Virus record (IMG/VR): IMGVR_UViG_3300013383_000248
DNA length: 13,237 nucleotides
Direction: 5' to 3' (one strand)
From: a virus
The notes under the pieces are model-generated. The model ran no database searches and was not told where the DNA came from. It saw only the letters and a list, made by a program, of their open reading frames with translations. The translations under genes were made by a program, and so were the position numbers. Shown in pieces: positions 1 to 13,009 of the stretch; the stretch's first letter is position 1, and the number at the start of each line of letters is the position of its first letter.

Positions 1-1892
1 GCATAGAAGAATGTAGTAGTCTTAATAGGTTCATCAAGTGATGGAGACCAAGAGGCAAACTCATAGTAATCAGAAGGTTCGCCGCCGACTTTCTTTTTAA
101 TATCTTCTTCATTGCCATTATAACTAGCATAATTACCGTAATAAACTCTAGTTTCATAAAGTAATTCACTATCATTGTAAAAATATACAGGATAACTTCT
201 CAGCTCTTCGGAGAATTCAGGCTCAACTGTTTTAGGAGCTGTAATTTTATCAAAGGTATCTTTCCAATCAGCATAAGTATAATCATACTATGCATCAGAT
301 GTCTTAGTAGGAATCTTGATAGTTTTATTAGCAACCGGATCAACGGCTGCGCCACCTTTGATAATCCACTATGTATTAACTACTTTATTATCGCCATCTA
401 CAAATTGAACTCTATAATATGTATCATAAAGGGCAACCATTGTAAGTGGTCCTTGAATATTGCTCTATAGATTACTTAATTCACGATAGATGTAATGAGT
501 ATCCTCAGTGCCTTCGTGAGTAGGTGTTTCAATTAATCCTGTTGCTATTGGATCTATAGCATTATCTCCTTGAGAAATTGCATATTTATAAAGTAAATCA
601 TTATTCCAGTTTACATAACGTAAGAAGAAGCGTGTTTTACCATTAACAATAACAATTAATTCCTTAAATGTTTCATTAAGTTCTTCAAGGAAATCATCAC
701 TAATTTCATTAATTTCAATATAACCAGTGACAACCGCGGTTTCAGTATTATTACCATTGGCATCTATACCGCCGCAAGATTTTAGTTTATTAAAAATAAT
801 CTTTAAAATATCTTCATTGGTGACAGACCAAGTAAGATTAACTAAACGCACACGATCAAGTTTAGGACTATTTAATAGAATATTTTCAATGGGAATGTTA
901 GGAGTATCATCAATCCATAAGGTATTGAGACTATCATAACTTTCCATAGAGAAATTCTAAATACCATGCTAATTACGAATTGTTAAGTTCGTAAATGTCC
1001 CAGGTAATTCTAGATTGGTTAAATGTCCGCCCATTGGGAATTGTAAACTCGTTAAAGAAGAACCTTTTGCTTTTACAGTTTCAAGGTTTACACAATTACT
1101 TAAATCAATTGCTTTAACTAGATTTATACAATTTTCAACATTTAAATAATCTAATAATCTATTATTACCAAGTTCTACACTTGTTAATTTATGATTAGTA
1201 TATCCATCTGCACTACTGCCAAGAATAACTTCTCTTAATTTAGTAGCCGAACTAAATTTAACAGTATCAGGTTTGAAATTACTTAAATCACCGAAGCTAG
1301 AAATTCTATCAGAAGAGCGAATAAAGATTTCAGTGTCAGATGCCGTATCAATTGGGCATTTTAATAAGTTAGGTGTATTGCGTTTACTACGCTGAGTGAC
1401 TGGATAAGAATCAGTAAAATCAACGCGGGGCCATAGATGTTGATAAGGAGTTACTGTGATATCTTCTGGAGAATATGCACGGAAACTTGCTGTCATCTTT
1501 TGGGCGTCGCCAGTGCGATACTTAGAATCGCGGTATTTAAATGTATTATATAACCACCATTCACGCTAAGTACGCTTATTACCTTGGCACATATCAAAGT
1601 ATTCTTCGCCATCAGTTAAATATACATCTAAGTATTTTAATTTAGCATCTTCATTCCAAAGAGCTTCAGGCCAGCATTTACTTTGATGTTCATTCATTTT
1701 TGTGTTAATAGCTTCATAAGAGAACTTACCTGCTATACGAAGTTTATCATACATAGCATAAATTTCAGATTTAAAAGCATCACGAATATTTAACCATAAT
1801 GTGCTTTGCTAGCCATTAAATACATCTTCATTATTTACTTTATCAGTATCTTCAAGGTCATAGTCGAAGACAAGAGCGCCTTCATTATTAAT
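1..1892 (-). CDS. Giant protein G, exon 2, partial: it continues beyond the window start. It holds the C-terminal part of the CotH-like domain, then a leucine-rich-repeat region, then further domains.
   Basis: The frame is the same as exon 1. It is open from 1892 down to position 1 through TAG codons at 1809, 1566, 969, 957, 465, 369 and 288. It joins track ORFs 1566..1754, 969..1496 and 465..947. There is no RBS or start near 1892. An LRR-like segment reads LTSVELGNNRLLDYLNVENCINLVKAIDLSNCVNLETVKAKGSSLTSLQF. Confidence 0.6.
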
Positions 1893-2939
1893 CGTTTAAT
1901 CCACTATTTCTAATGGAACAGACTATATCTTAACGGATTTTTTTAAATCCGCAAAACCCATTTCAAGCTATGTATCAATAATAGCTTTACTCTCCCGATC
2001 CGGAGATAGTCGTTACAGGTTTATAATTTAAATTATTTCAAATTTAGGAATTGCTTCAAATTTCCAACCATATAAGAAAGATCGTTTAGTAGGTATCCAA
2101 GTATCTCCAGCCTAATGTAAATTACTTCTTAAACATATATCTTTATTAAAATATAAATTAGGTTCTTTAGATGAAATAAATATCATTTCTTCGTTATTTG
2201 GAGATATTGCTTTTACAAAATAATGTGCTGTTTTTGCTTTATTTTTTCTAGCATTAGGACCATTATAATAGTTTTTCATAAAATCACCATGTCGTTTAGC
2301 TTGTTCTTGGCCTATAGGAGTTTTATAAAAATTATTCATCCATTCAGTATGCTATTCTATATGTGATTTATCAGCCCAATATTCTGTCATGCTCTAACTT
2401 AATTTTTGACGTCTTTCACCACTTCGTTCAGGATTGTTCCAATAAGCTTTAGATTGTTCTTGATGGCTATCTCCACCTGATGTTAGATTATATCCTTTGT
2501 CTAAATTATTAGAATCATAGAATTTTATATAATAACATTCTCGCTCATTTAATTTATTCTATAATTCTTGTTTATCATTAGTTTTTATTGTCTCTATGAT
2601 TTCCCAAATAAAATTATCTTTAGGATACTTTTCTAAAGTTTTATGAAAAACTGAATTGCCATAATGACGTTTTGTTGCAGTATAATGGCTAGAACGTCTA
2701 CGGTTTAAAGTATTAATAGTCTAACCTATATAAATTTTATTATTTTGTTTATTAGTTACTTTATATATTAATCCTATCATTTAACTTCCTCCTTTCTTAA
2801 AATTTTTTTTGTTGAAATAATTTAAATTAATTTCCCACGGTATTGCCTTCATCTTTACATGGTCAGGTTTCACCGTTAGCATATATTAAATATATACCCC
2901 GTTGATGAGACGGAAAAGGTTTAACAGGCATTATTACAT
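1893..2939 (-). mobile_element. Group I (IA-like) self-splicing intron, about 1047 nt, carrying a GIY-YIG homing endonuclease ORF in a peripheral loop
   Basis: The last exon bases GGU plus the first intron bases AU pair with an IGS-like AUGCC, giving a U-G wobble at the proposed 5' splice site after 2940. A P2-like hairpin CCGU...ACGG lies at about 2895-2912. P7 5' strand GACTAT at about 2003-2008 pairs with ATAGTC inside the conserved S-element AAGATATAGTC at about 1921-1931. A P9 hairpin CCATTA-GAAA-TAGTGG (GNRA tetraloop) at about 1901-1916 is followed by ACG, with candidate omega-G at 1893. There are further helices CTCCG-GAT-CGGAG and AGCTAT...ATAGCT. The flanking exons are in the same frame and together reconstitute one CotH-like domain. 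The intron length of 1047 nt, a multiple of 3, fits the frame continuity. Exact splice junctions are uncertain by a few nt. Confidence 0.6.
2028..2780 (-). CDS. GIY-YIG family homing endonuclease (I-TevI-like), 250 aa, encoded inside the intron
   Basis: ATG at 2778-2780 with SD AAGAAAGGAGGAAG. Translation reads MIGLIYKVTNKQNNKIYIG-Q-TINTLNRRRSSH...ELQNKLNERECYYIKFYDSNNLDKGYNLTSGGD. It matches the GIY-(10/11)-YIGQT, Arg/His and Glu/Asn GIY-YIG motifs. Five in-frame TAG codons, at 2721, 2559, 2394, 2352 and 2112. TAA at 2028-2030. It contains track ORF 2112..2339. Confidence 0.75.
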
Positions 2940-5900
2940 ACCATTAGCGGTATCAAAGTCATAAGGAAGTAAAAACCAATGAGTGCCGTCAAAGGTAGTG
3001 AAGAACATATTCTTTGCACGGCTATCAATCATTAAGAATACTTCAGTAAAGATATAATAGAAAATAAAATCATCTTTAATAAGATAATCATCAATTTCAT
3101 ATTTAAATTTATCAAGACGGTATTCTTCTGTATCATTATTATAAGTAGTTCCGCCATAAGTGACAGGAGCACTTAAGGCTTCACCGGTAGCCTAACGTCT
3201 ATCAGTAGAAACAATCCAATCAGCCACACGCTTAAATTGTGTATAATCACTATAAGGTTCATCTAAATCAGGATAACGGGCCTCGAAGTCAGCCATCCAA
3301 GCTGGAGTTACTGTACCTGTTTCGGCGTCTACGTATGTTTCTTCAAATTCACTCTTTTTAAATAACGTTCTATCAGAGGTATTATTTGAGAATTCCCAAC
3401 TTTCAAGGTGAGGATATAATTCACTATCAAAACCGAAAACATTTTCATTGCTCTTATCGTTATTCATATTATACATACCTTGGAATTTTACTTCGCCGGT
3501 TTCTGTATTTTCCCAGAAAACAACAATAGGAACGCCCTTAATGCCCGTTCTTATTTTATCATTTGTCTTTTGGGGCGGAGTTTTAAAAATATCACGAACA
3601 AGAGTATCATAATAATCTACAAGAACTGTATTATTTGCGTGTTCAGAAGAAGCATAGTCAGCTTTTAAGCATAATGTCGCGGCAAGTAAATCGCCGTCTT
3701 CAATTGGGAATCCTTTTGCTGTATCGCCATTAGAATAAGTAATACCTTTCTTAAAAGATACTTTAAAATTCTTAATAGGATAAACCGCTGAAGATGTACC
3801 TTGAACATTAAATTGACATCCAGTGGCTGTGAAATTACGTTCAGGATGTAAATTATCTACGAAATAAACAGATTTATTTTTCTTTTTATCGCCCTTATAC
3901 TATGGTAATTCTTCACATTGCATTACTAAGTAAGGAATAGACTTAGGTAATGAACCAATTGTAAGATTGCCGGATATATCATAAATGTGATTGCGCTCTT
4001 CAATTTCTAATCTTTCGCCATTAGTAGAACGGTCACAGATATAGTTATTTAACTATTCAGACATTGTAAGATTACGGTTATAGAAACGCATCTTATATAA
4101 GTCAAGTCCACAAGTATCAGAACCAATAGTAATAGGCTATGGAGTTGATTGTTTAAAATTATCATTTTCAGGATACTGTTCAACCGCACAAATAATGCCA
4201 TTTACATACATATAAATGAAACGATTTAAGGTTTGCGGCTCTACAACTACTGTAATTCTAACACGTTCATCTTCTTTAAACATCATAACAATTTCTTTGG
4301 ATTGCTCTGATTTAAAAATGATAGATTGGGATTTAATCACAAAACCGCGACCTTCATTAACACAAGATACAATGACTGAATCATAATCATTTACATTATG
4401 ACTACTTAATTCAAATTCCATTGTATAACCATTGGAGCGTTTGTCAGTTGCGAATGGATAGAATGGGATTACCATCTTATCTTTTGGTAAGAATCTTAAT
4501 ACTGTTTCACCAGCATCGCTCTCTACCCAGCCATCTGCGCCAGACCATACAAAACGTTCAAAAGAAGCATCTATATCATTATAGTTCCATTGTGCAGGAT
4601 TCTTTTCAGCATTACTACGTCCATTAGCTGTAAATTCTAATGCAAGATTGTCTTTAATGACTGATAAATTAAAAGTAGATTCGTGAATAGTCATATGGAA
4701 TTCTTTAATGGCGTCAGTGCCTGAATCACTACTTGCTGTAATACGGAAAATAATTTGTCCGGCGGGATAATCTTGGATAACCCAGTTTTGAGTAGTTTGA
4801 TTTACAATAATTTCTTTTGTAAAATAAATTGAATTATCAGGATTAATAATTTCTAATTTTACATTAGTAGTCTCAAGGAATGGATTATAAACCATATAAG
4901 GAATAGTAATGATTTCGCCTTGAGTTGATTCTGTCTACTGGAATGTAGAAAGAATATGTGTATCAACCATTTCGTCAGTCACATACATCATACCAAGAGT
5001 AAGAGTATTAGATTGAATAGACATATTATTAGTTTCCATTGTGGCATAGCAAGTAAATAAGTGGGCGCCGGCTGTCTACATAGGAATCTTATAACTATAA
5101 GCCAATTTATTAGTACTAGTTATTTCTTCGTTATATAATTCATTGCCATCCATTAAATAATGTAAAGTCTTAGTGCCTGAACCAATGATAACAAATGCAA
5201 AACTCGTATCACTAGTGTAAATATCCATTGATTTAAAATTAGTAGTTAATGATAAGTTAATAACACTAATTGAATAAGTCAATGTTTTTTGTTTGCCATC
5301 AGAATTTTCAACGACTAACTAAACATCATTGTCACCAAGAACTAAGTATTTAGTAATATCAAATGTTTGTAGCTTTTGTGCAACTGCAATAGTTGTTTTC
5401 TTTACATCATTGACAATGAGAGTGCCGATGCCAGGACCATCATTAAGACCATCTTGGTCTATAGACGAATAGCGGAATTTTAATTCTATTGTATCGCCTT
5501 CAAGTGTGGCAAAGATTCGGTCAATTGCAGATTGGAGAGTAATGTTATATCCTTCTTCAATAGTGCCGCCACCCGCTTGCCCTAATTTTTCATAGGCCTT
5601 GGTCAAAGTATTATAATTATATAGAGCCTAATCCGCGATGACCTTATACAGCACATCAGCTTCGCCGGTCTCAGGCAATTCATCAAATTTATTCACTACA
5701 AGAATATTACTCTTACCCTCAACGGCCTATTGAGTTTCATTAAGAATTTCATAAGCGGCTTTAGTGTCATTCCAGTAATAAAATTTTTGATTTTCTTTTA
5801 CTTTATATAATACATCTTCAACTTTTTCAGTAGGTAAATTGGCGATGGTATCTATAACTGCTATGTTCTCTTTACCTTCTACTATTGGAGTTTCACCAGT

Positions 5901-6536
5901 ATTTTCATTAATTGCCTAATAAGTTCTGGTCTATTGATTCCAAGTGTAAAGTAAATCAGTATCAGCTACCTTATAGAGCATAATTGGATTACCTTCATCC
6001 GGTAATTCTGCTTTAGTGCTAATTAATTTAATATTATTAATTTGAGATACTGTTTCTGCTTTTATTTTTTCATAATTATTATTTTGTGAGTTCCAGCTAT
6101 AAATTAACTAATCATCTAAGGATTTGTATAATTTATTATTTTCGCCGTTAGCTGGGAAGCCATCTTTTGTGTCAGCAACAATTATATTATCAATTTGAGG
6201 TTCTGGGTCTGGAATTTCTTGCTTTTCGTTGATAGCAATAAATTTATCATTATCCCAAAAATAGATTAATGATGTTGATTTAACTTTGTAGAAGAATGAA
6301 GCATCACCCTCTGGGGGTAATTTTTCTACTGTTTCAATACTTTTATTTTGAACAACTATATCATTTTCACTAGCAATATATTTCAATTCTTTCCAATTAG
6401 TTGTTCCATCACCAATTTTTAATTTATGAGTGTCTAGCTCATAACCGGCTTCTCCTATCGCTAACGTAGGATTAGCATCTAACCAATTGGTAGAAGTATC
6501 AGAACGAAGTAAAATTGTAGCATTCAATTTCCCCAT
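2940..6536 (-). CDS. Giant tail-fibre / structural protein G, exon 1 (about 1199 codons). It contains the anchor domain, 5 tandem YKV/LYxWN repeats, a ConA-like region and a CotH-like kinase-fold domain up to the P(Y/W)DxD motif.
   Basis: ATG at 6534-6536 with a strong SD (AAGGAGGTAAA). One minus-strand frame stays open across track ORFs 6108..6536, 5319..5606, 5076..5282, 4137..4895 and 3192..3476 and all gaps between them. It is interrupted only by 12 TAG codons, at 6108, 5931, 5916, 5727, 5628, 5319, 5076, 4935, 4137, 4053, 3900 and 3192. CotH-like motifs are present: NVQGTSSAVYPIKNFKVSFKKG (compare RGNSS..YPKKSYKIKF) and KNMFFTTFDGTHWFLLPYDFDTANG (compare the PWDxDxxFG region). The frame ends at TAA at 2934, which I interpret as lying within the intron, 5 nt after the 5' splice site. 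Confidence 0.65.
5585..6360 (-). repeat. Five tandem in-frame protein repeats of about 50 aa each in gene G, of the form ...LP.EG...(V/I)LYKV.....LY.W(N/D)....Y(E).(I/L)
   Basis: Translation shows FFYKVKSTSLIYFWDNDKF, KLYKSLDDQLIYSWNSQNNNYEKI, IMLYKVADTDLLYTWNQQTRTYQAI, DVLYKVKENQKFYYWNDTKAAYEIL and DVLYKVIADQAQYNYNTLTKAYEKL at roughly 150-165 nt spacing. One copy of the module also occurs after the anchor domain in X and in Y. Confidence 0.6.
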
Positions 6537-6570
6537 TATTTTACCTCCTTATATTTTAATCTCTAAATAC

Positions 6571-6610
6571 AATAAAAAAAAGGGTTATTCAGTTAACCTG
6601 AATAACCCTT
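6571..6610 (-). terminator. Rho-independent terminator downstream of gene W
   Basis: A perfect 13-bp stem AAGGGTTATTCAG / CTGAATAACCCTT (6580-6592 and 6598-6610) with a 5-nt loop. On the minus-strand transcript it is followed by a run of 8 U residues (plus-strand A-run 6574-6581). It starts 12 nt after the W stop codon. Confidence 0.7.
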
Positions 6611-6622
6611 TGGAATTAAAGA

Positions 6623-8599
6623 TTACATTACTGTATTGGCAGAACCACAATCAAAAATAACGTAAGCAGTTTGGTCTAAATCATCAATCTTGCCGGAAGC
6701 AGCAACTTTATGAAGCATTACTTCCGCACCCTTACTGATTGCACCATTGGTCTGCTTAACCTGAGTTAAAACACCAAATTTACCGTCAGTCTGGGTTTCA
6801 GTAGCAACTGCACCTTCACTAGTTAACTTAGTAATTGCGCTCGCAGCATCATCAGCACTCTTCTAAGCAGCAGCCGCAGCAGCAAAAGCACCATAAACAG
6901 TCTTATCATCGGCAGTATCTGCATCATCGCCCAAAACAGCAGCAGCAGCACCGGCGGCATCATAGGTACCAGCTTTAATGCTACCAGAGACAGACTTTAA
7001 TGTACCATTTTCCTGAACTACGGTAAGAGCTAGTTGACCATTACCTTCAGCAGCATCTTGAGAAACAGTACTAACAAGATTTACAACTTTATCGTTAATT
7101 TTCTTATCAACTGAGCCTGCAGTCTCAACAGTACCATTTAAAGTATCAATAGCGGCTTTATTGGCGTTAACTTTTTCTTCAAGAGCAGTTACATCAGCAG
7201 AAGCACCACTCTTAATGCTAGCTAAACGCTCCGTTAAGGTTTCTTTTTCGCCTTCTTCGCCGCCCTCTTTATCTAACTTGACTTGATCGCCAGAGATAGA
7301 GATTTTGCTACGAGTGGCAGTGACCATACCATTATTCTGGACAATAGTGGTAATGGTTTCATCAGCAGTACCTGTTTGAGCAGCAGCACTTAAAGATTTC
7401 TTAACAGCATCAGCAACGCCTTCATCACCGAACTGATCGAACTTGGTGCCATCAAAGATATACTCTAAAGTGCCAACGATGACAACATCACCAGTTTTAT
7501 AATCACTTACATCAGTAGGAAGAGCTTCTAACATACCTTTATAAGTTAAGGATTTAGAGAACTTTTCAACTACAGCATCGACATCTGCTTCTGTAGCAAT
7601 TTTATTGCTTTCAGAATTATAAGCAGTCTTAAACTTTAGATCACGTTTAGTAGCAGAAACAATACCATTAGCTTCGCTGATTTCACCTACGAAAGAAATG
7701 GTTTCACTATTGTCAGCAACACCAGCTTCATAACCAGTATAGTTTAATTTCTTAATTGCATTATCACGATCAGTAGCTTCTTGGGCAGCAGCAGCAGCAG
7801 CTTCTTCAGCTTTAGTCTGTGCAGCAGCGGCAGCTTTATTTGCACCGAAAACTGTACTAGCGCCAGCGGCATCAGTATCTTTACCAAGAACAGCAGCAGC
7901 AGCACCGGCGGCATCATAAGTGCCTTCTTTAATAGTAGCAGTGACAGATTTTAACGTACCATTTTCCTGAACGATGGTGACATCAAGGCCATCAGCATTG
8001 ACAGCATTTTCATCAGTGCGGTTAGAAATAGTAGCATTTAACTTTTTAATAGCCGCATCAATTTGACTAGCAATACTACCAGCACCGCCAGTTAATCCTT
8101 CAATTTCAGTCTCTAATGTAGCAATACGGCCAAAAGCATCAGTAACATCGATTAAAGAATCGGTAACATTCTGCCAATCTCCATCTAATTCTTTAGATTG
8201 AAGTTGATATTTACCAGGAATAACAGCATTTTCATCATCTTTAGCTTGAACGATTTTATATTGAGTATTGGTATCGTAGTCAGAATATTTTTCAATAGCT
8301 TCTTGTAAACCAGTGATTTCAGAAGCAGCATAAGAAGGCTTGTTAGCAGCTTTAGCCCAGCCATATATATCAGCAGCTAATCCACTTACAAAAGGAAGAA
8401 AACTATATTTACTAGCACCATCGCCAATTTTAAGGACTACATTAGGTAAATTCTGTAATTTACTAGTAGTGTTACCCTCTGGAATAGTAGCAATTGCCAT
8501 TTCGCCTTTCTTTAATACAGGATCAGCAGCAAGCCAATTATCATAACTATCATATTTTAATTGAATACGAGTTTGAAATACTTTATTAGTATCAGGCAT
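6623..8599 (-). CDS. Tail-fibre protein W, 658 aa. Anchor-like N-terminus (...VLKIGDGASKYSFLPF), poly-Ala-rich central region with two long internal direct repeats.
   Basis: ATG at 8597-8599 with SD AAAGGAGATAATAAATT. Track ORF 6863..8599 continues in frame through TAG at 6863-6865 for 80 more codons (KSADDAASAITKLTSEGAVATETQ...FDCGSANTVM). TAA at 6623-6625. An intrinsic terminator follows immediately. Confidence 0.8.
6866..7020 (-). repeat. Intragenic direct repeat in gene W, copy 2 (encodes LTVVQENGTLKSVSGSIKAGTYDAAGAAAAVLG...)
   Basis: About 85% nt identity with 7836..7990 over roughly 100-150 nt. The shared core is cagcagcagcagcaccggcggcatcata...ctttaatg/acgtaccattttcctgaac. Confidence 0.6.
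7836..7990 (-). repeat. Intragenic direct repeat in gene W, copy 1 (encodes VTIVQENGTLKSVTATIKEGTYDAAGAAAAVLG...)
   Basis: Paired with 6866..7020. Both copies are followed by Ala-rich tracts. Confidence 0.6.
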
Positions 8600-8627
8600 A
8601 ATTTATTATCTCCTTTTCAATCAATTA

Positions 8628-10304
8628 TTAATATGTAAAAGCTGCGGCGCCACCACAATTAAGTAGGACATCCTCAGTCTATACAAGTTTATTAACATTT
8701 AAGCTCTTAACCTCAAGAGCATTATTGGTATCAAGACCAATTTCAGCAGAGGTTTTAACAATACCAGCAACTTCACCAGTAGCAAATGGTAATTCAACTA
8801 CTTTATTAGTAATTGCTAAGTTTTCAGTCTAACCGGCTAACTTAATAGCTTCAATTATATTGACTTGAGCACCTTCGGCAATACCATCTAATTTGGTTTC
8901 GTCAGCAGCACTTAATAAGCCAGGAGCTGTATCACGCTTACCAGTAATCCAATCAGCAAGGCCAGTTACTTTTTCAGCAGCAACATTAGCTGAAATTTCT
9001 ACTGAGCCGTCCTCATTGATAACTAAGTTATCTAATTTAGCCTTATTGGTTGGGCTTAAGAGCGTCCAAGCTACTTGCTCGCCATTGACTTCGCTGGTAA
9101 CTTTATCAACTTTACCATCAACTTTAGTAGTTAATGCAGCAATATCATTAGTATTTTTAGTAACTTTACCAGTTAATTCAGTAACTGTAGAAGCATCAGC
9201 TTTTCCAGCAACAGTTTGAGTAAGAGTAGCTAAATCTGCTGTATGACCTTCAACAGTTGTAGTAAGAGCTGTTAAATCAGCTTGATTGGCTTTACCATTG
9301 ACAGCTTCAGTAAGAGCTGTAATATCTCCAGTATTTTTATCAACCTTGCCAGAGAGAGTTTCAACAACAGTAGCATCAGCTTTCTTACCAATTGCTGTAG
9401 TATTAGCAGCAATCTTAGTAGCAAGATCATCAGTTACTGTAGTTTTAGCATAACTCTCAAGAGTAGTATTAACATCAGCAGTTTTAGCATAATCAGTTAA
9501 ATCAACAGATGTATCACCTATTAATTCAATAGTATAGCTATCTTCTGCACCAAAGCGCATATACTCTTTATAGTTGTCTTTACCATCTTTAGAAGAAACC
9601 TTCTGCATATAAATAACATTATCAGATGCTGTAGATGGGTCAGCGATAAATGCAGCAAGTTCTTGCTCAGTGACAATCTGACGAGTTAAATGGCTAGCTC
9701 CGGCGACTGCGGCGTCAATAGCTAAATCAGCCTCATCCTTAGTATAAACATCTGCGGAATTTGCCTTTTTAGCAACTTCATCTGTTACAGTAGTAATTTT
9801 ACCATCAATATCATCTTTGGTATATACATCTTCGCTGTTGGCTTTTTTAGCAACTTCAGTTTGAAGATTTCCAACATTGGCTTCAAGAGTGGCAACCTTA
9901 GTGCTAAGCCCTTCAACAGTAGTAGTGTCAGGCTTTACCCAAGATAGCTTACCATCAGTGCCAACCGTTAATTGCGCACCAGCAGCTGCATCAGCAAATC
10001 CATAAAGACTTAATTTGCCATCAGCATCTTTAGTGAAAACATTTTCATTAATGACAATTTCTTCGCCAACCCCAGAAAGAGTTTTATCTGGCTGAATCTG
10101 ATAAATTTTTGCCTTACCATTTTCAACTACGACTACTGGATTACCATAGTAATATGCCGTATTAGTACTACCAGCAGGTTCGGCAGTAGCAGCAGCAGCA
10201 ACTGCGGCATCGTAGCTTTCAAAATAACTCTTAGGGTCAAGAGGGAACGCCGTTTGTCTATTAAGGCCAACAGCAAAATCAAGAACACCAAAATTCATAG
10301 ACAT
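8628..10304 (-). CDS. Fibre protein Z, 558 aa, with periodic Thr/Leu/Ala/Lys repeats typical of phage fibre shafts. Its N-terminus differs from the A/X/Y/W/G family.
   Basis: ATG at 10302-10304 with SD AGGAGGGGAAATAATT. Track ORF 8829..10304 continues through TAG codons at 8829 and 8679 to TAA at 8628-8630. The C-terminus reads ...NCGGAAAFTY. Confidence 0.75.
9075..9410 (-). repeat. Periodic fibre-shaft repeats in gene Z, about 11-residue units rich in T/L/A/K/V (...ITALTEAVNGKANQADLTALTTTVEGHTADLATLTQTVAGKADASTVTELTGKVTKNTNDIAALTTKVDGKVDK...)
   Basis: Seen in translation. It appears at nucleotide level as recurring ttaccag / ttagc(a/t)gcaat motifs. A second short pair EVAKKANS-DVYTKD lies at about 9763-9783 and 9841-9861. 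Confidence 0.5.
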
Positions 10305-10322
10305 AATTATTTCCCCTCCTTA

Positions 10323-11567
10323 TTAAATTTTTACAATATAACTATTTGCAGCTTCTATAGGAGCAGCAAATTCAGTTGTAAAGACTTTATAACTAATGCC
10401 AGCATCATTTTCAGCGCCAGCTACAGTAATAGTTTCTTTCCTAAATGCAGAAACAATTTCAGCATTTAAGCCATTGACATCTTTTACGGAAGTAATATCA
10501 CGTAAAGTAGCAGGATAAGCAAATACTACTCTGATTGCACCGACAGGAAGAGCAATAGTAACAGAATCGCCAGCTTTTAATGCCTTACCTGTTTTATTAA
10601 GAGCACGAATTGTAGGACTATCAAGACTATCTTTATTAGCAGTAGTGCCATAGAAAGTATTACGATAGCAGCTAATTGTGCCACTTGTCTTACTTACCTT
10701 ACCAGCCTTAATTTGACCGGCGGCATAAGCATTACCTTTATTAGTGACAGGAACTGCTGCGTCGTCATAACTGGCTTCAGCATTAATTGTATAACTATCG
10801 CTATCAGCAAGGACAATAGCTGTAAAGGTATCCTTAGCAGTTGTTTTATTCTGAACTGAAGTATTACCTTTTCTTAAATTTACATTCCAACTCTTGGCGG
10901 TTAAACCAGTAGCAGGGCCATAAGAATAAGAACCAGCACTCATTTTTGCATCATAACTTGGAGTGACAGATGTACCAACTTCAAAACTACCTGTAGTAAC
11001 TTGAGTAAAAGAAACTGCGGGTTGAGTAACAGTAGGATTTTGTTCCTTAACAAAAATCTATTCCCAAGTATCAGTTAAATTCTTGCCAGTAGAAGGAATA
11101 TGAGCAGAGCCATTTTCAAGGGTAATATAACCAATTTCCTTAGTAGTGAATAAGTCCTTATCAAAGTAAACATTATTCGCATTGTAATTGCCATTCATAG
11201 CTTGCCATTTGGAATCATTGTAAACATATGCGGTATAGGTTATTGCTTCACCGATTGCGGATTTAACAATAGCCATATCGCCTTCAAATAGAGCATTTTC
11301 ACCGACTACACGAGTGATCGCCGCGATATCATCTTCACCTTCAGCTAAGTCTGCTTGATAGACTTGAGCTTGATGAACATCAGATTCGCCGCCAAAATAA
11401 TCAAGTTGTGCCCAAGTTTTTTGGCCGTCGCCTAATTTCATTTTGGTTTCACCGGCGTCAGTAAATTCGACACCCATTTCGCCTTTCATAAGGACTACAT
11501 CAGAATTAGCTTCCCAATTAGCTGTTGAGTCATTACGTAAAGCAATACGAGTTTTAATCTAAGCCAT
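10323..11567 (-). CDS. Tail-fibre paralog Y, 414 aa. Anchor domain plus a distinct C-terminal, putatively receptor-binding, domain.
   Basis: ATG at 11565-11567 with SD GGAGGTAACGCAT. It overlaps the end of gene X by 14 nt in a different frame. N-terminus reads MA-Q-IKTRIALRNDSTANWEANSDVVLMKGEMGVEFTDAGETKMKLGDGQKTWAQLDY. In-frame TAG codons at 11559 and 11058 join track ORFs 11058..11489 and 10323..10943. TAA at 10323-10325. Confidence 0.7.
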
Positions 11568-11928
11568 ATGCGTTACCTCCATTTATAATATCTATATCTT
11601 CAATAGGAATACCTCCGCCACCGCTACCAGCCATAAGAGACTCATAGCCATTTGTTTCAGTATTCCATTGGTATAGTTTCGCAGTAGAAGAAACTTTATA
11701 AATAACATTTGCCTTACCTATACTTGGTAATTCAGCAAATACTCTAGCATTAACAACATTCTCGTTGTTCTAGTCTTGGTACGGTAAATCATTCCAAGCG
11801 GTTTTACCATCGCCAATTTTTAAACGCAAGGTATCAATTTCAAAACCAGGTTCACCATCTAAAAGTAGGAGGTTTTTGGTTCGCCAAGTTGTTGATTTAC
11901 CACGTTTAAATTTAATTATATCAGCCAT
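11554..11928 (-). CDS. Short tail-fibre paralog X, 124 aa. It consists of the anchor domain and one YKV/LYQWN repeat, then a GSGGGG tail.
   Basis: ATG at 11926-11928 with SD AAGGAGGAAAAATAAT embedded in the 3' end of gene A. Protein begins MADIIKFKRGKSTTWRTKNLLLLDGEPGFEIDTLRLKIGDGKTAWNDLPYQD. One in-frame TAG at 11770-11772. TAA at 11554-11556. It is absent from the ORF track because the TAG splits it into pieces under 60 aa. Confidence 0.6.
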
Positions 11929-11929
11929 A

Positions 11930-13009
11930 TTATTTTTCCTCCTTCTTTACTACATAGAAGCCATTTTCTAAGACCTATGTGTATCCAGAAGCAAGATAAG
12001 CCGGATTTAACATACGATTAAAGCGTCCGCCGCTAATTTCAATATGCGGTTCACCTTCAATCTTAAAATTACTATCCTATTGTGCGGTAATAAATGTGCC
12101 GCCACTAATATAAGTATTTTGGACATTTAAATCTTCATTTAGTTTACGAATATATAAATTATATTCGCCTTGATTTTGTTTACTATTTTCAAAATAACCA
12201 TCAGTAATAGTCATTGATTTACCAGTGGCAAGAATAATATTGTAGAATGTGCCGCCATTAATATTTAAAACAGCATTGTCATCATTCTTTACGGCATATA
12301 AACCACCTGCAAATGTACCATCATTAATAGTTAATTCAGGCGATTCGGCATTTTGACCTTGGACATAACCATTTGTAGCATCACCGGCTTTATAATTATA
12401 ATAACCATTTTCAATCATGCTAGAAAATTCGCCGCCACTCATAAATATACCGCCATTAATTGTCATAGTGCCATGATTAACTATAGTGTAAAATCCATTA
12501 CCAGATACATCTATTGTGCGCTACAACTTACCATTATTAATAATCGTATTACCATTATTAAAAACTGCAGGCTTACCATTTTTATTACATTCAATAGTAC
12601 CTTGACCTTTAATAGTTAAATCGCCGCCTACTTTGATGTCTATTGGAGTTGTTTCATTATTGATAATATTATTACCATTTAATTCAACAGTTAATTTTTT
12701 ATCAATAGAAACACTATTATCAAAGTCTTTATTAAGACGAATGGTGCTTCCTGCTGGAGCCTTCATAAATGCTACGTCAATAGATTGATAAGGCACACCA
12801 TCTACGACCGCGGGATTGCTAGTGTAGTCTTGGACGTTAACGACTTTAGTGCCACCGATATAAGGTAGTTCGTTCCAAGCTGTTGAACCATCACCAACTT
12901 TAATCTAATGAGTATTAAGTTCTACGCCAATTTCACCAGCTGCAAGAATAATATTTTTTTTAGACCAACTAGATGATTTGCCGCGTCTTAATTGAATAGT
13001 TTCAGCCAT
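11930..13009 (-). CDS. Tail fibre / tailspike paralog A, 359 aa. It has the HylP-like N-terminal anchor domain followed by a beta-helix-like C-terminal region with repeated NGGTF / INNG motifs.
   Basis: ATG at 13007-13009 with SD GAAAGGAGAACACAAG upstream. N-terminus reads MAETIQLRRGKSSSWSKKNIILAAGEIGVELNTH-Q-IKVGDGSTAWNELPY. The same frame stays open through TAG codons at 12905, 12521, 12077 and 11975, joining track ORFs 12521..12796 and 12077..12466. It ends with TAA at 11930-11932. Confidence 0.75.

Follow-up and report, generated by a model that had tools for sequence, protein, structure and literature searches.

A group I intron in a tail-fibre-like gene of a gut phage carries a predicted GIY-YIG homing endonuclease with in-frame TAG codons, one of them at a family-invariant glutamine

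A split tail-fibre-like gene, its intron and the intron ORF

The DNA analysed here is a stretch of 13,237 nucleotides from a virus (IMG/VR record IMGVR_UViG_3300013383_000248), referred to below as the window, and all positions are counted from its first letter. Tail-fibre-like genes, each with 1-12 in-frame TAGs, follow one another along the window, and one of them is split into two exons by a group I intron that carries a GIY-YIG homing endonuclease ORF. Exon 1 (2940..6536, minus strand) has 1199 codons, includes 12 in-frame TAGs and ends with GCT AAT GGT (A N G); its tblastn alignment to standard-code homologues stops at residue 1200. Exon 2 (3..1892, minus strand) begins with ATT AAT AAT GAA (I N N E), contains seven in-frame TAGs and runs off the window as an open frame. 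The interrupted gene is longer than 1829 codons, and Pfam DUF6273 is assigned to exon 2 in the public gene call. In tblastn searches of GenBank phages the nearest host-gene proteins were those of phage NatCom_3357 (46% identity) and Bacteroides Hankyphage (31%), and the N-terminal domain of the endonuclease reached 30-40% identity at best. The sequence at the intron site (DSRAKNMF...PYDFDTANG) was considered as a CotH-kinase motif and rejected, there being no Pfam CotH match at E<=1.

A contig from run SRR1747033 matches the window at 100% identity, and contigs of 98-174 kb from further samples match it at 99.5-99.8%; the longest contig in the protein index is 193 kb, and an identical (100%) endonuclease protein is found in 24 contigs. 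When the whole window was compared with 50,697 GenBank phages by megablast, no match appeared. As judged from these contig comparisons, the window belongs to a widespread, large, uncultivated gut phage.

The intron (1893..2939, minus strand) is 1047 nt in length and of IA type, with P1, P3, P4, P5, P6 (containing the ORF), P7, P7.1, P7.2, P8 and P9 assigned from Rfam RF00028, RNAalifold and intron-less loci. The 5' splice site was placed after U2940, and G1893 is the omega-G. P1 (2927..2942, minus strand) is formed by exon GGU and intron AU paired with AUGCC, with a U.G wobble at the splice site; its GC, GC, UG and AU pairs are kept in 9/9 related introns and the fifth pair covaries between UA and GC. 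The 3' half of the core (1893..2046, minus strand) was assembled from Rfam, the sequence itself and RNAalifold. It comprises the 3' strand of P6, whose sequence is partly shared with the final codons and the TAA of the endonuclease, followed by J6/7, P7 (GACUAU), P7.1, P7.2, P3' (GGGUUU), P8, J8/7-P7' (AAGAUAUAGUC), the P9 GAAA hairpin and the omega-G.

An Rfam search of the window at the gathering threshold gave no match. In a permissive local search, RF00028 (Intron_gpI) detected the 3' core at 2084..1900 with 39 bits (gathering score 50) and E=3.9e-8; a score below gathering is to be expected with an ORF of 753 nt in P6, which disrupts the model. The RNAalifold consensus was computed from nine related introns with their ORFs removed. 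It contains 76 pairs, 35 of which show compensatory changes, and recovers P4, P5, the long P6 stem enclosing the ORF, P7.1, P7.2, P8 and P9; P3 covaries between AAACC/GGUUU and AGACC/GGUCU. P7 (GACUAU...AAGAUAUAGUC) is invariant and hence uninformative for covariation. Its assignment comes from the Rfam alignment alone; the P3/P7 pseudoknot is beyond RNAalifold, which paired the P7' strand with exon 2. Two more covarying hairpins were seen between P3 and P4.

The predicted junction is confirmed to the codon by intron-less IMG/VR relatives (L011-L013), which read PYDFDTAIGINNEGDLVFEYD uninterrupted and encode PYDFDTA(I/N)G|INNEG across the junction. In DNA the L011-type site is ...GATACTGCCATTGGT|ATTAACAATGAAGG..., also given as TTCCCAATTCCTTATGACTTTGATACTGCCATTGGT|ATTAACAATGAAGGTGACTTAGTC. 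The predicted spliced product reads ...PYDFDTANG|INNEGALVFDYD, which restores an uninterrupted conserved frame. Covariation, the Rfam match and the intron-less loci support the prediction that 2939..1893 is a self-splicing group I intron carrying the endonuclease in P6.

The endonuclease ORF (2028..2780, minus strand) starts with ATG at 2780, has 250 sense codons and ends with TAA at 2030..2028. A Shine-Dalgarno AAGGAGG (2788..2794, minus strand) can be read in the sequence 7 nt ahead of the ATG, and GGAGG is kept upstream of the ORF in all relatives. The translation of 2780..2028 starts MIGLIYKVTNKQNNKIYIG*TINTLNRRR. The frame contains five in-frame TAGs and no TAA or TGA. At the base composition of the region, the chance of zero TAA/TGA in 250 codons is ~2.6e-9, and the other five frames of this stretch hold 6-41 TAA plus TGA codons, so chance does not account for the endonuclease frame. 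When TAG is translated as Gln, the product matches Pfam GIY-YIG (PF01541) over residues 3-90 (30.5 bits, cut-off 22.6, E=4.7e-7) and PHROG homing-endonuclease families including phrog_314 (best E=6e-25).

An AlphaFold model made from 17 family members (pLDDT 83.8) divides the protein into an N-terminal catalytic domain (aa 1-98, 2780..2487, minus strand), a linker of low confidence or disorder (aa 101-110) and a helical/beta C-terminal domain (aa 111-250) that is presumed to bind DNA. Foldseek aligned the N-terminal domain with the I-TevI catalytic domain 1mk0 (target TM 0.81, rmsd 2.6 A, E=1.2e-4), and searches of Pfam and of solved structures with Foldseek found no family and no significant match, respectively, for the C-terminal domain. 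The catalytic residues of I-TevI are Y6, Y17, R27, H31, E75 and N90. The window endonuclease carries LIY at 4-6 and YIG at 17-19, and a phmmer alignment to 1mk0/1ln0 places its Y6, Y17, R28, H32, E81 and N98 opposite these I-TevI residues in the same order; all are invariant across the 17 family members. The Pfam match, the Rfam core, the compensatory pairs and the intron-less homologues bear out the proposal of the first-pass annotation that ORF 2028-2780 is an intron-borne GIY-YIG endonuclease, and we consider its identity as an I-TevI-like homing endonuclease inside the intron confirmed at the level of sequence and modelled fold. The same annotation had counted five in-frame TAGs in the ORF, and both the coordinates and the count are right: codons 20 (2721..2723), 74 (2559..2561), 129 (2394..2396), 143 (2352..2354) and 223 (2112..2114), all on the minus strand.

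Between endonuclease pairs dN/dS is 0.07-0.25, and by this measure the ORF is shown to be under purifying selection. No frameshift, TAA or TGA was found in the six recoded endonuclease copies compared below. It is hardly credible that the ORF is a decaying endonuclease pseudogene, its TAGs being ordinary nonsense mutations in an intron whose nuclease no longer works. Homing endonuclease genes often degenerate during the homing cycle, and a standard-code reading does break this ORF at codon 20, but the frame is broken by TAG only and never by TAA or TGA, as is the case in every other gene of the window, the recoded relatives are free of frameshifts, one of the TAGs sits at an invariant Gln, and the dN/dS values rule out decay.

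The reading of TAG in the endonuclease and its host gene

If TAG is taken as sense, 12,687 of the 13,237 nt of the window fall within minus-strand ORFs of 100 aa or more; with the standard code the figure is 8,640 nt. The eight coding segments together hold 34 in-frame TAGs. All six genes that end within the window stop at TAA, and TAG is never a stop. Outside the endonuclease, the Gln codons of the window are 84 CAA, 29 TAG and 18 CAG; five of the 12 Gln codons in the endonuclease are TAG and none is CAG.

A database search with the endonuclease found 16 full-length relatives with 48-92% identity. Gene callers had already translated TAG as Gln in the 100% protein match, which makes alignments of recoded proteins circular, and the comparison was therefore carried out on DNA. 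Six recoded copies (window/L001, L015, L016, L017, L005, and L098), whose flanking genes need TAG as a sense codon, were compared with five standard-code copies (L007, L097, L009, L099, and L100), whose flanking genes show no interruption in the standard code. In all eleven loci the host gene has this intron, with the endonuclease, at one and the same site. TAG is absent from the five standard-code endonucleases.

Codon 20 lies directly after YIG and reads KIYIG-TAG-TINT, so that the first-pass annotation was correct in placing one TAG at the Q of YIGQT. The YIG-x-T position is Gln in 17/17 family members, and at the DNA level the codon is TAG in 6/6 recoded relatives and CAA in 5/5 standard-code relatives. 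Even where relatives share only 57% identity this codon has stayed TAG; other Gln sites have flipped. TAG and CAA are exchanged among close relatives at alignment columns 125, 143, and 223: window codon 143 is CAA in the 88%-identical L015 and in the standard-code L007, and codon 223 is CAA in L016. In L005, TAGs stand opposite standard-code Gln (CAA/CAG) at columns 111, 145, and 153. The endonuclease columns in which Gln partners TAG are thus 20, 111, 125, 143, 145, 153, and 223.

The host gene offers a second comparison. Its 19 TAGs were aligned with standard-code homologues, and Gln was found in 19 of 40 aligned cells, the next residue being Val with six. At the CAA/CAG sites of the same gene, 47 of 115 cells are Gln (41%), and the overall identity background is 51%. 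The TAG cells behave like the CAA/CAG cells and like the background identity, which argues for TAG = Gln. We concluded that these alignments give good support to TAG = Gln (genetic code 15) in the window phage.

The endonuclease ORF had been put forward as a clean internal calibration of TAG as Gln. This view is upheld by codon 20, by the TAG/CAA swaps and by the host gene, but not by the other four TAGs of the window, which lie in variable polar columns (Q/R/D/K at codon 74 and Q/S/N/G/E at codon 129, together with codons 143 and 223) and which, in this alignment, calibrate nothing by themselves; only codon 20 is in a conserved column. The expectation of Gln at YIG-x-T likewise holds for the orthologous family and not beyond it. 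I-TevI has Ser at the position of the invariant Gln, and a second endonuclease in L005 has Lys after YIG. Among more distant matches Gln follows YIG in 94 of 101 (93%) and Lys in 7 of 101, a Gln share that is inflated because the searches were seeded by shared YIGQ-containing words. A pattern scan of IMG/VR for the motif, which was seeded in the same way, gave further matches. Judged from the orthologous family and from I-TevI, Gln after YIG is a subfamily trait and is not GIY-YIG-wide.

A residue other than Gln at TAG, such as Tyr, Trp, Leu, Lys or pyrrolysine, is very improbable. It could draw on one TAG of L005 that stands opposite Tyr/Phe (TAT/TTT) at alignment column 239, and a tRNA scan of the window and 13 related loci, which covers ~20 kb of the phage genome of at least 174 kb, found no suppressor tRNA or other tRNA in which identity elements could be read. 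In the endonuclease and in the host gene alike, however, Gln stands opposite TAG far more often than any other residue, and metaproteomics shows TAG = Gln in other gut phages (PMC9523058).

Origin of the TAGs and dependence of the nuclease on suppression

Neighbour-joining groups the recoded endonucleases into a single clade. A host tree, built from the last 300 codons of exon 1, contains the same sister pairs as the endonuclease tree, with the intron-less alleles nested in the recoded clade. Agreement between the two trees indicates that the endonuclease acquired its TAGs in situ while its lineage was being recoded, and the earlier suggestion that the element evolved within a recoded translation system agrees with both. 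The simplest reading of the trees is that this gene family has long carried the intron, which co-diverged with the phages, and that the ORF gained its TAGs in place after UAG suppression had appeared. CAG is absent from the recoded endonuclease copies and present in the GC-richer standard-code copies; the TAGs were probably gained via CAG.

The endonuclease is written in the recoded dialect of the phage and provided with its own Shine-Dalgarno, in P6 of an intron that splits a tail-fibre-like gene. Without a Gln tRNA that reads UAG, translation would end after 19 residues, ahead of the active-site Arg, His, Glu and Asn. Since a peptide of 19 residues lacks R28, H32, E81 and N98, synthesis of the nuclease would need suppression. 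Nuclease production and homing would then require the suppression machinery of the phage and be limited to the infection phase, or to the genomes, in which that machinery is functional. We regard as highly probable this overall explanation of a code 15 gut phage with an intron-borne, recoded endonuclease that depends on suppression, the dependence being the step that we infer. What speaks against it is that the tRNA scan of the window and of ~20 kb of the same phage found no suppressor tRNA, and that the Rfam score of the intron lies below gathering. From the same dependence we infer that the nuclease might be confined to the late phase of infection; the host gene is itself late-type and bears TAGs, so that beyond transcriptional timing the contribution of recoding may be small.

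One alternative agrees with the above on the identity of the element and disputes only that the TAGs act as a gate. It holds that they have no regulatory meaning and result from passive drift of CAG to TAG throughout a genome that already has a suppressor tRNA, the timing being set by the late tail-fibre transcript. We give it a little less than an even chance. The near absence of CAG throughout the window, in the codon counts given above, is what such drift would leave behind. By TAG share of Gln codons the endonuclease ranks first in the window (5/12, or 0.42), but exon 2 is equal to it (0.41), and the test of the endonuclease against all other genes of the window was not significant (Fisher p of 0.16). 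A scan for sigma-70 promoters, with Bacteroidota-type promoters outside its scope, found no excess of promoter-like sites over shuffled sequence and, on the strand of the ORF, none ahead of it. Since the recoded endonucleases are monophyletic, a single ancestral change suffices to account for TAG at codon 20 in every recoded member.

Three observations do not fit passive drift as easily. First, in each of five recoded lineages the TAG share of the endonuclease is above that of its flanking genes (23 TAGs observed vs 11.9 expected); the pooled excess has a Mantel-Haenszel (MH) odds ratio of 3.0 with a CMH p of 2.7e-4, a p-value that is overstated because the five lineages share ancestry. The excess over neighbouring genes across recoded lineages is only suggestive. 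Second, codon 20 has kept TAG over the range of divergence in which other Gln sites flipped. Third, an analogous enrichment of TGA was reported in an intron endonuclease (Borges et al., bioRxiv 10.1101/2021.08.26.457843). A stronger version of the gate would make the TAG at Gln-20 a selected "code lock", with intron endonucleases preferentially recoded near the ORF start, produced only where the phage suppressor tRNA is active, and the element silent in standard-code phages. We think this version unlikely. If it were true, the lock would protect replicating genomes early in infection, and the genetic code would be a barrier to selfish DNA, holding it within a community of one code.

Under the explanation that we prefer, in which the recoded endonuclease depends on suppression with or without a selected lock, the locus demonstrates code 15 in compact form: an invariant residue beside an active-site motif is encoded by TAG in recoded relatives and by CAA in standard-code relatives at the same intron site. 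It shows that mobile introns track the code of the resident genome, with a nuclease that comes to depend on the suppression machinery of the phage. Annotation by standard-code gene calling will overlook the endonuclease as well as the split tail-fibre gene. The locus also provides a predicted tryptic peptide across codon 20, IYIGQTINTLNR, and the intron-less allele offers a natural target for studies of code-gated homing.

Comparison with known intron endonucleases and recoded phages

The closest well-known counterpart is I-TevI of the T4 td intron. Both enzymes have the GIY-YIG fold (target TM 0.81) with aligned catalytic Tyr, Tyr, Arg, His, Glu and Asn, and both are laid out as a catalytic domain, a flexible linker and a C-terminal domain. 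The introns are also alike: IA-type with P7.1/P7.2, the ORF looped out from P6, and insertion at a conserved site in a phage gene. The two proteins are ~24% identical, and I-TevI has Ser where the window family has its invariant Gln. Unlike I-TevI, the window endonuclease contains five recoded stops and a C-terminal domain without a family or structure match. The host genes differ as well, being a tail-fibre-like structural gene in the window and a nucleotide-metabolism gene in T4 td.

Recoded stops in an intron endonuclease have been described for the Agate phages, in which the group I intron endonuclease is among three gene families that prefer TGA (p=1.3e-3), and it was proposed that the in-frame stops delay the nuclease until late infection (Borges et al., bioRxiv 10.1101/2021.08.26.457843). 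The Agate and window enzymes are both intron homing endonucleases of recoded gut phages with in-frame recoded stops; the former prefers the recoded codon, and the latter has the highest TAG share among its neighbours. In Agate, TGA is read as Trp, the endonuclease is in an early gene and the phages are ~127 kb in size (bioRxiv 10.1101/2021.08.26.457843), whereas in the window TAG is read as Gln, the host gene is a late-type tail-fibre gene and the phage is at least 174 kb. In contrast to the Agate case, the recoded codon of the window falls on a family-invariant residue beside the catalytic motif.

Delta and Zeta crAss-like phages carry intron ORFs with multiple TGAs in PolB and inteins with multiple TAGs in TerL (Yutin et al., 2021, PMC7886860). 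As in the window phage, these mobile ORFs are written in the code of the resident phage and come from gut metagenomes; the genomes of those phages are 145-192 kb (PMC7886860). The TAG-recoded GIY-YIG intron ORF of the window is not the specific case described there (PMC7886860), and the host gene of the window reaches at most 46% identity to GenBank phages. For the reading of TAG itself, metaproteomics has proven TAG = Gln in other, crAss-like gut phages (Peters et al., 2022, PMC9523058). Like the window phage, these code 15 phages have in-frame TAGs in structural genes opposite Gln of standard-code homologues; the data of Peters et al. are metaproteomic and from crAss-like phages (PMC9523058), whereas TAG = Gln in the window phage is deduced from sequence comparison.

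The principle of a recoded mobile element and the timing hypothesis were already published in 2021-2022, and the locus opens no new question. What is specific to the window is a TAG = Gln case of a GIY-YIG intron endonuclease in a tail-fibre gene, with an invariant residue recoded and with standard-code orthologues available side by side.

Tail-fibre-like genes and other genes of the phage

Six consecutive tail-fibre-like genes (window 13009..2940, minus strand) open with the same N-terminal module of about 55 residues, whose pattern is K.G....W...N..L..GE.G.E.DT...KIGDG.T.W..L.Y and which carries the label Mtd_N (Pfam) in public gene calls. Together, the six form a striking tandem family of proteins of the receptor-binding type. 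The fibre gene of 659 codons (8599..6623) contains a direct repeat of ∼95 nt with 86% identity between its copies (6931..7024 and 7884..7978), which corresponds to a duplicated protein segment, 'QENGTLKSV..IK.GTYDAAGAAAAVLG'.

Beyond the window, the identical contig L001 of the same phage encodes a 250-residue protein (19894..20646) with a repeat extremely rich in Cys, Gly, Ser and Thr (..CTGLCLSCTGSCTSGCSNTCRANCANDCTGVCGDGC..) as its C-terminal half, and Pfam gave no match for this protein. The sample run of this contig, SRR1747033, has a number near that of SRR1747018, the source of the TAG-recoded representative of the 'Sapphire' clade (Borges et al., bioRxiv 10.1101/2021.08.26.457843). Judged from the nearby run numbers, the window's phage may belong to this clade.

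Interruptions of related host genes

The TAG-recoded pig-gut relative L005, which shares the intron and endonuclease of the window, carries a second insertion (4322..5447, a sequence that includes a run of N) in the same host gene, with the shared intron lying about 1.1 kb further downstream. This insertion contains another GIY-YIG ORF (MVNTWTIYMYTFPNNKRYIGKTKRT...), in which TAG occurs twice in frame and YIG is followed by Lys, not Gln. There are thus two recoded endonucleases within one gene. At the related locus L014 (IMG/VR 3300032030_002597), the host-gene homologue is broken and changes frame at about 2330..2480. The break reads ...SRAKNMF, then ∼130 nt, then LPYDFDTANGTNNEG, and precedes the position of the window's intron by about 10 codons. 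Either a small intron that lacks an ORF and sits at a nearby site or a frameshift from the assembly could account for it.

Structural elements of the group I intron

Many compensatory changes across relatives occur in P6, the stem closing the loop that holds the ORF (minus strand of the window, 2046..2028 and 2826..2808). The 3' strand of this stem consists of the last five endonuclease codons and the TAA stop. Since the 3' end of the endonuclease doubles as a P6 strand, the protein end and the intron structure constrain each other.

The sole terminator-like hairpin of the region (CCGUC..ACGGGG with a U-rich tail, 2897..2915, minus strand) lies inside the intron and covaries across relatives (CCGC/GCGG, CCACUG/CAGUGG, and CCUA/UAGG). 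These features mark it as a structural hairpin of the intron, located between P3 and P4, and the terminator reading was rejected. The position of this hairpin and the next one is unusual for a group I intron.
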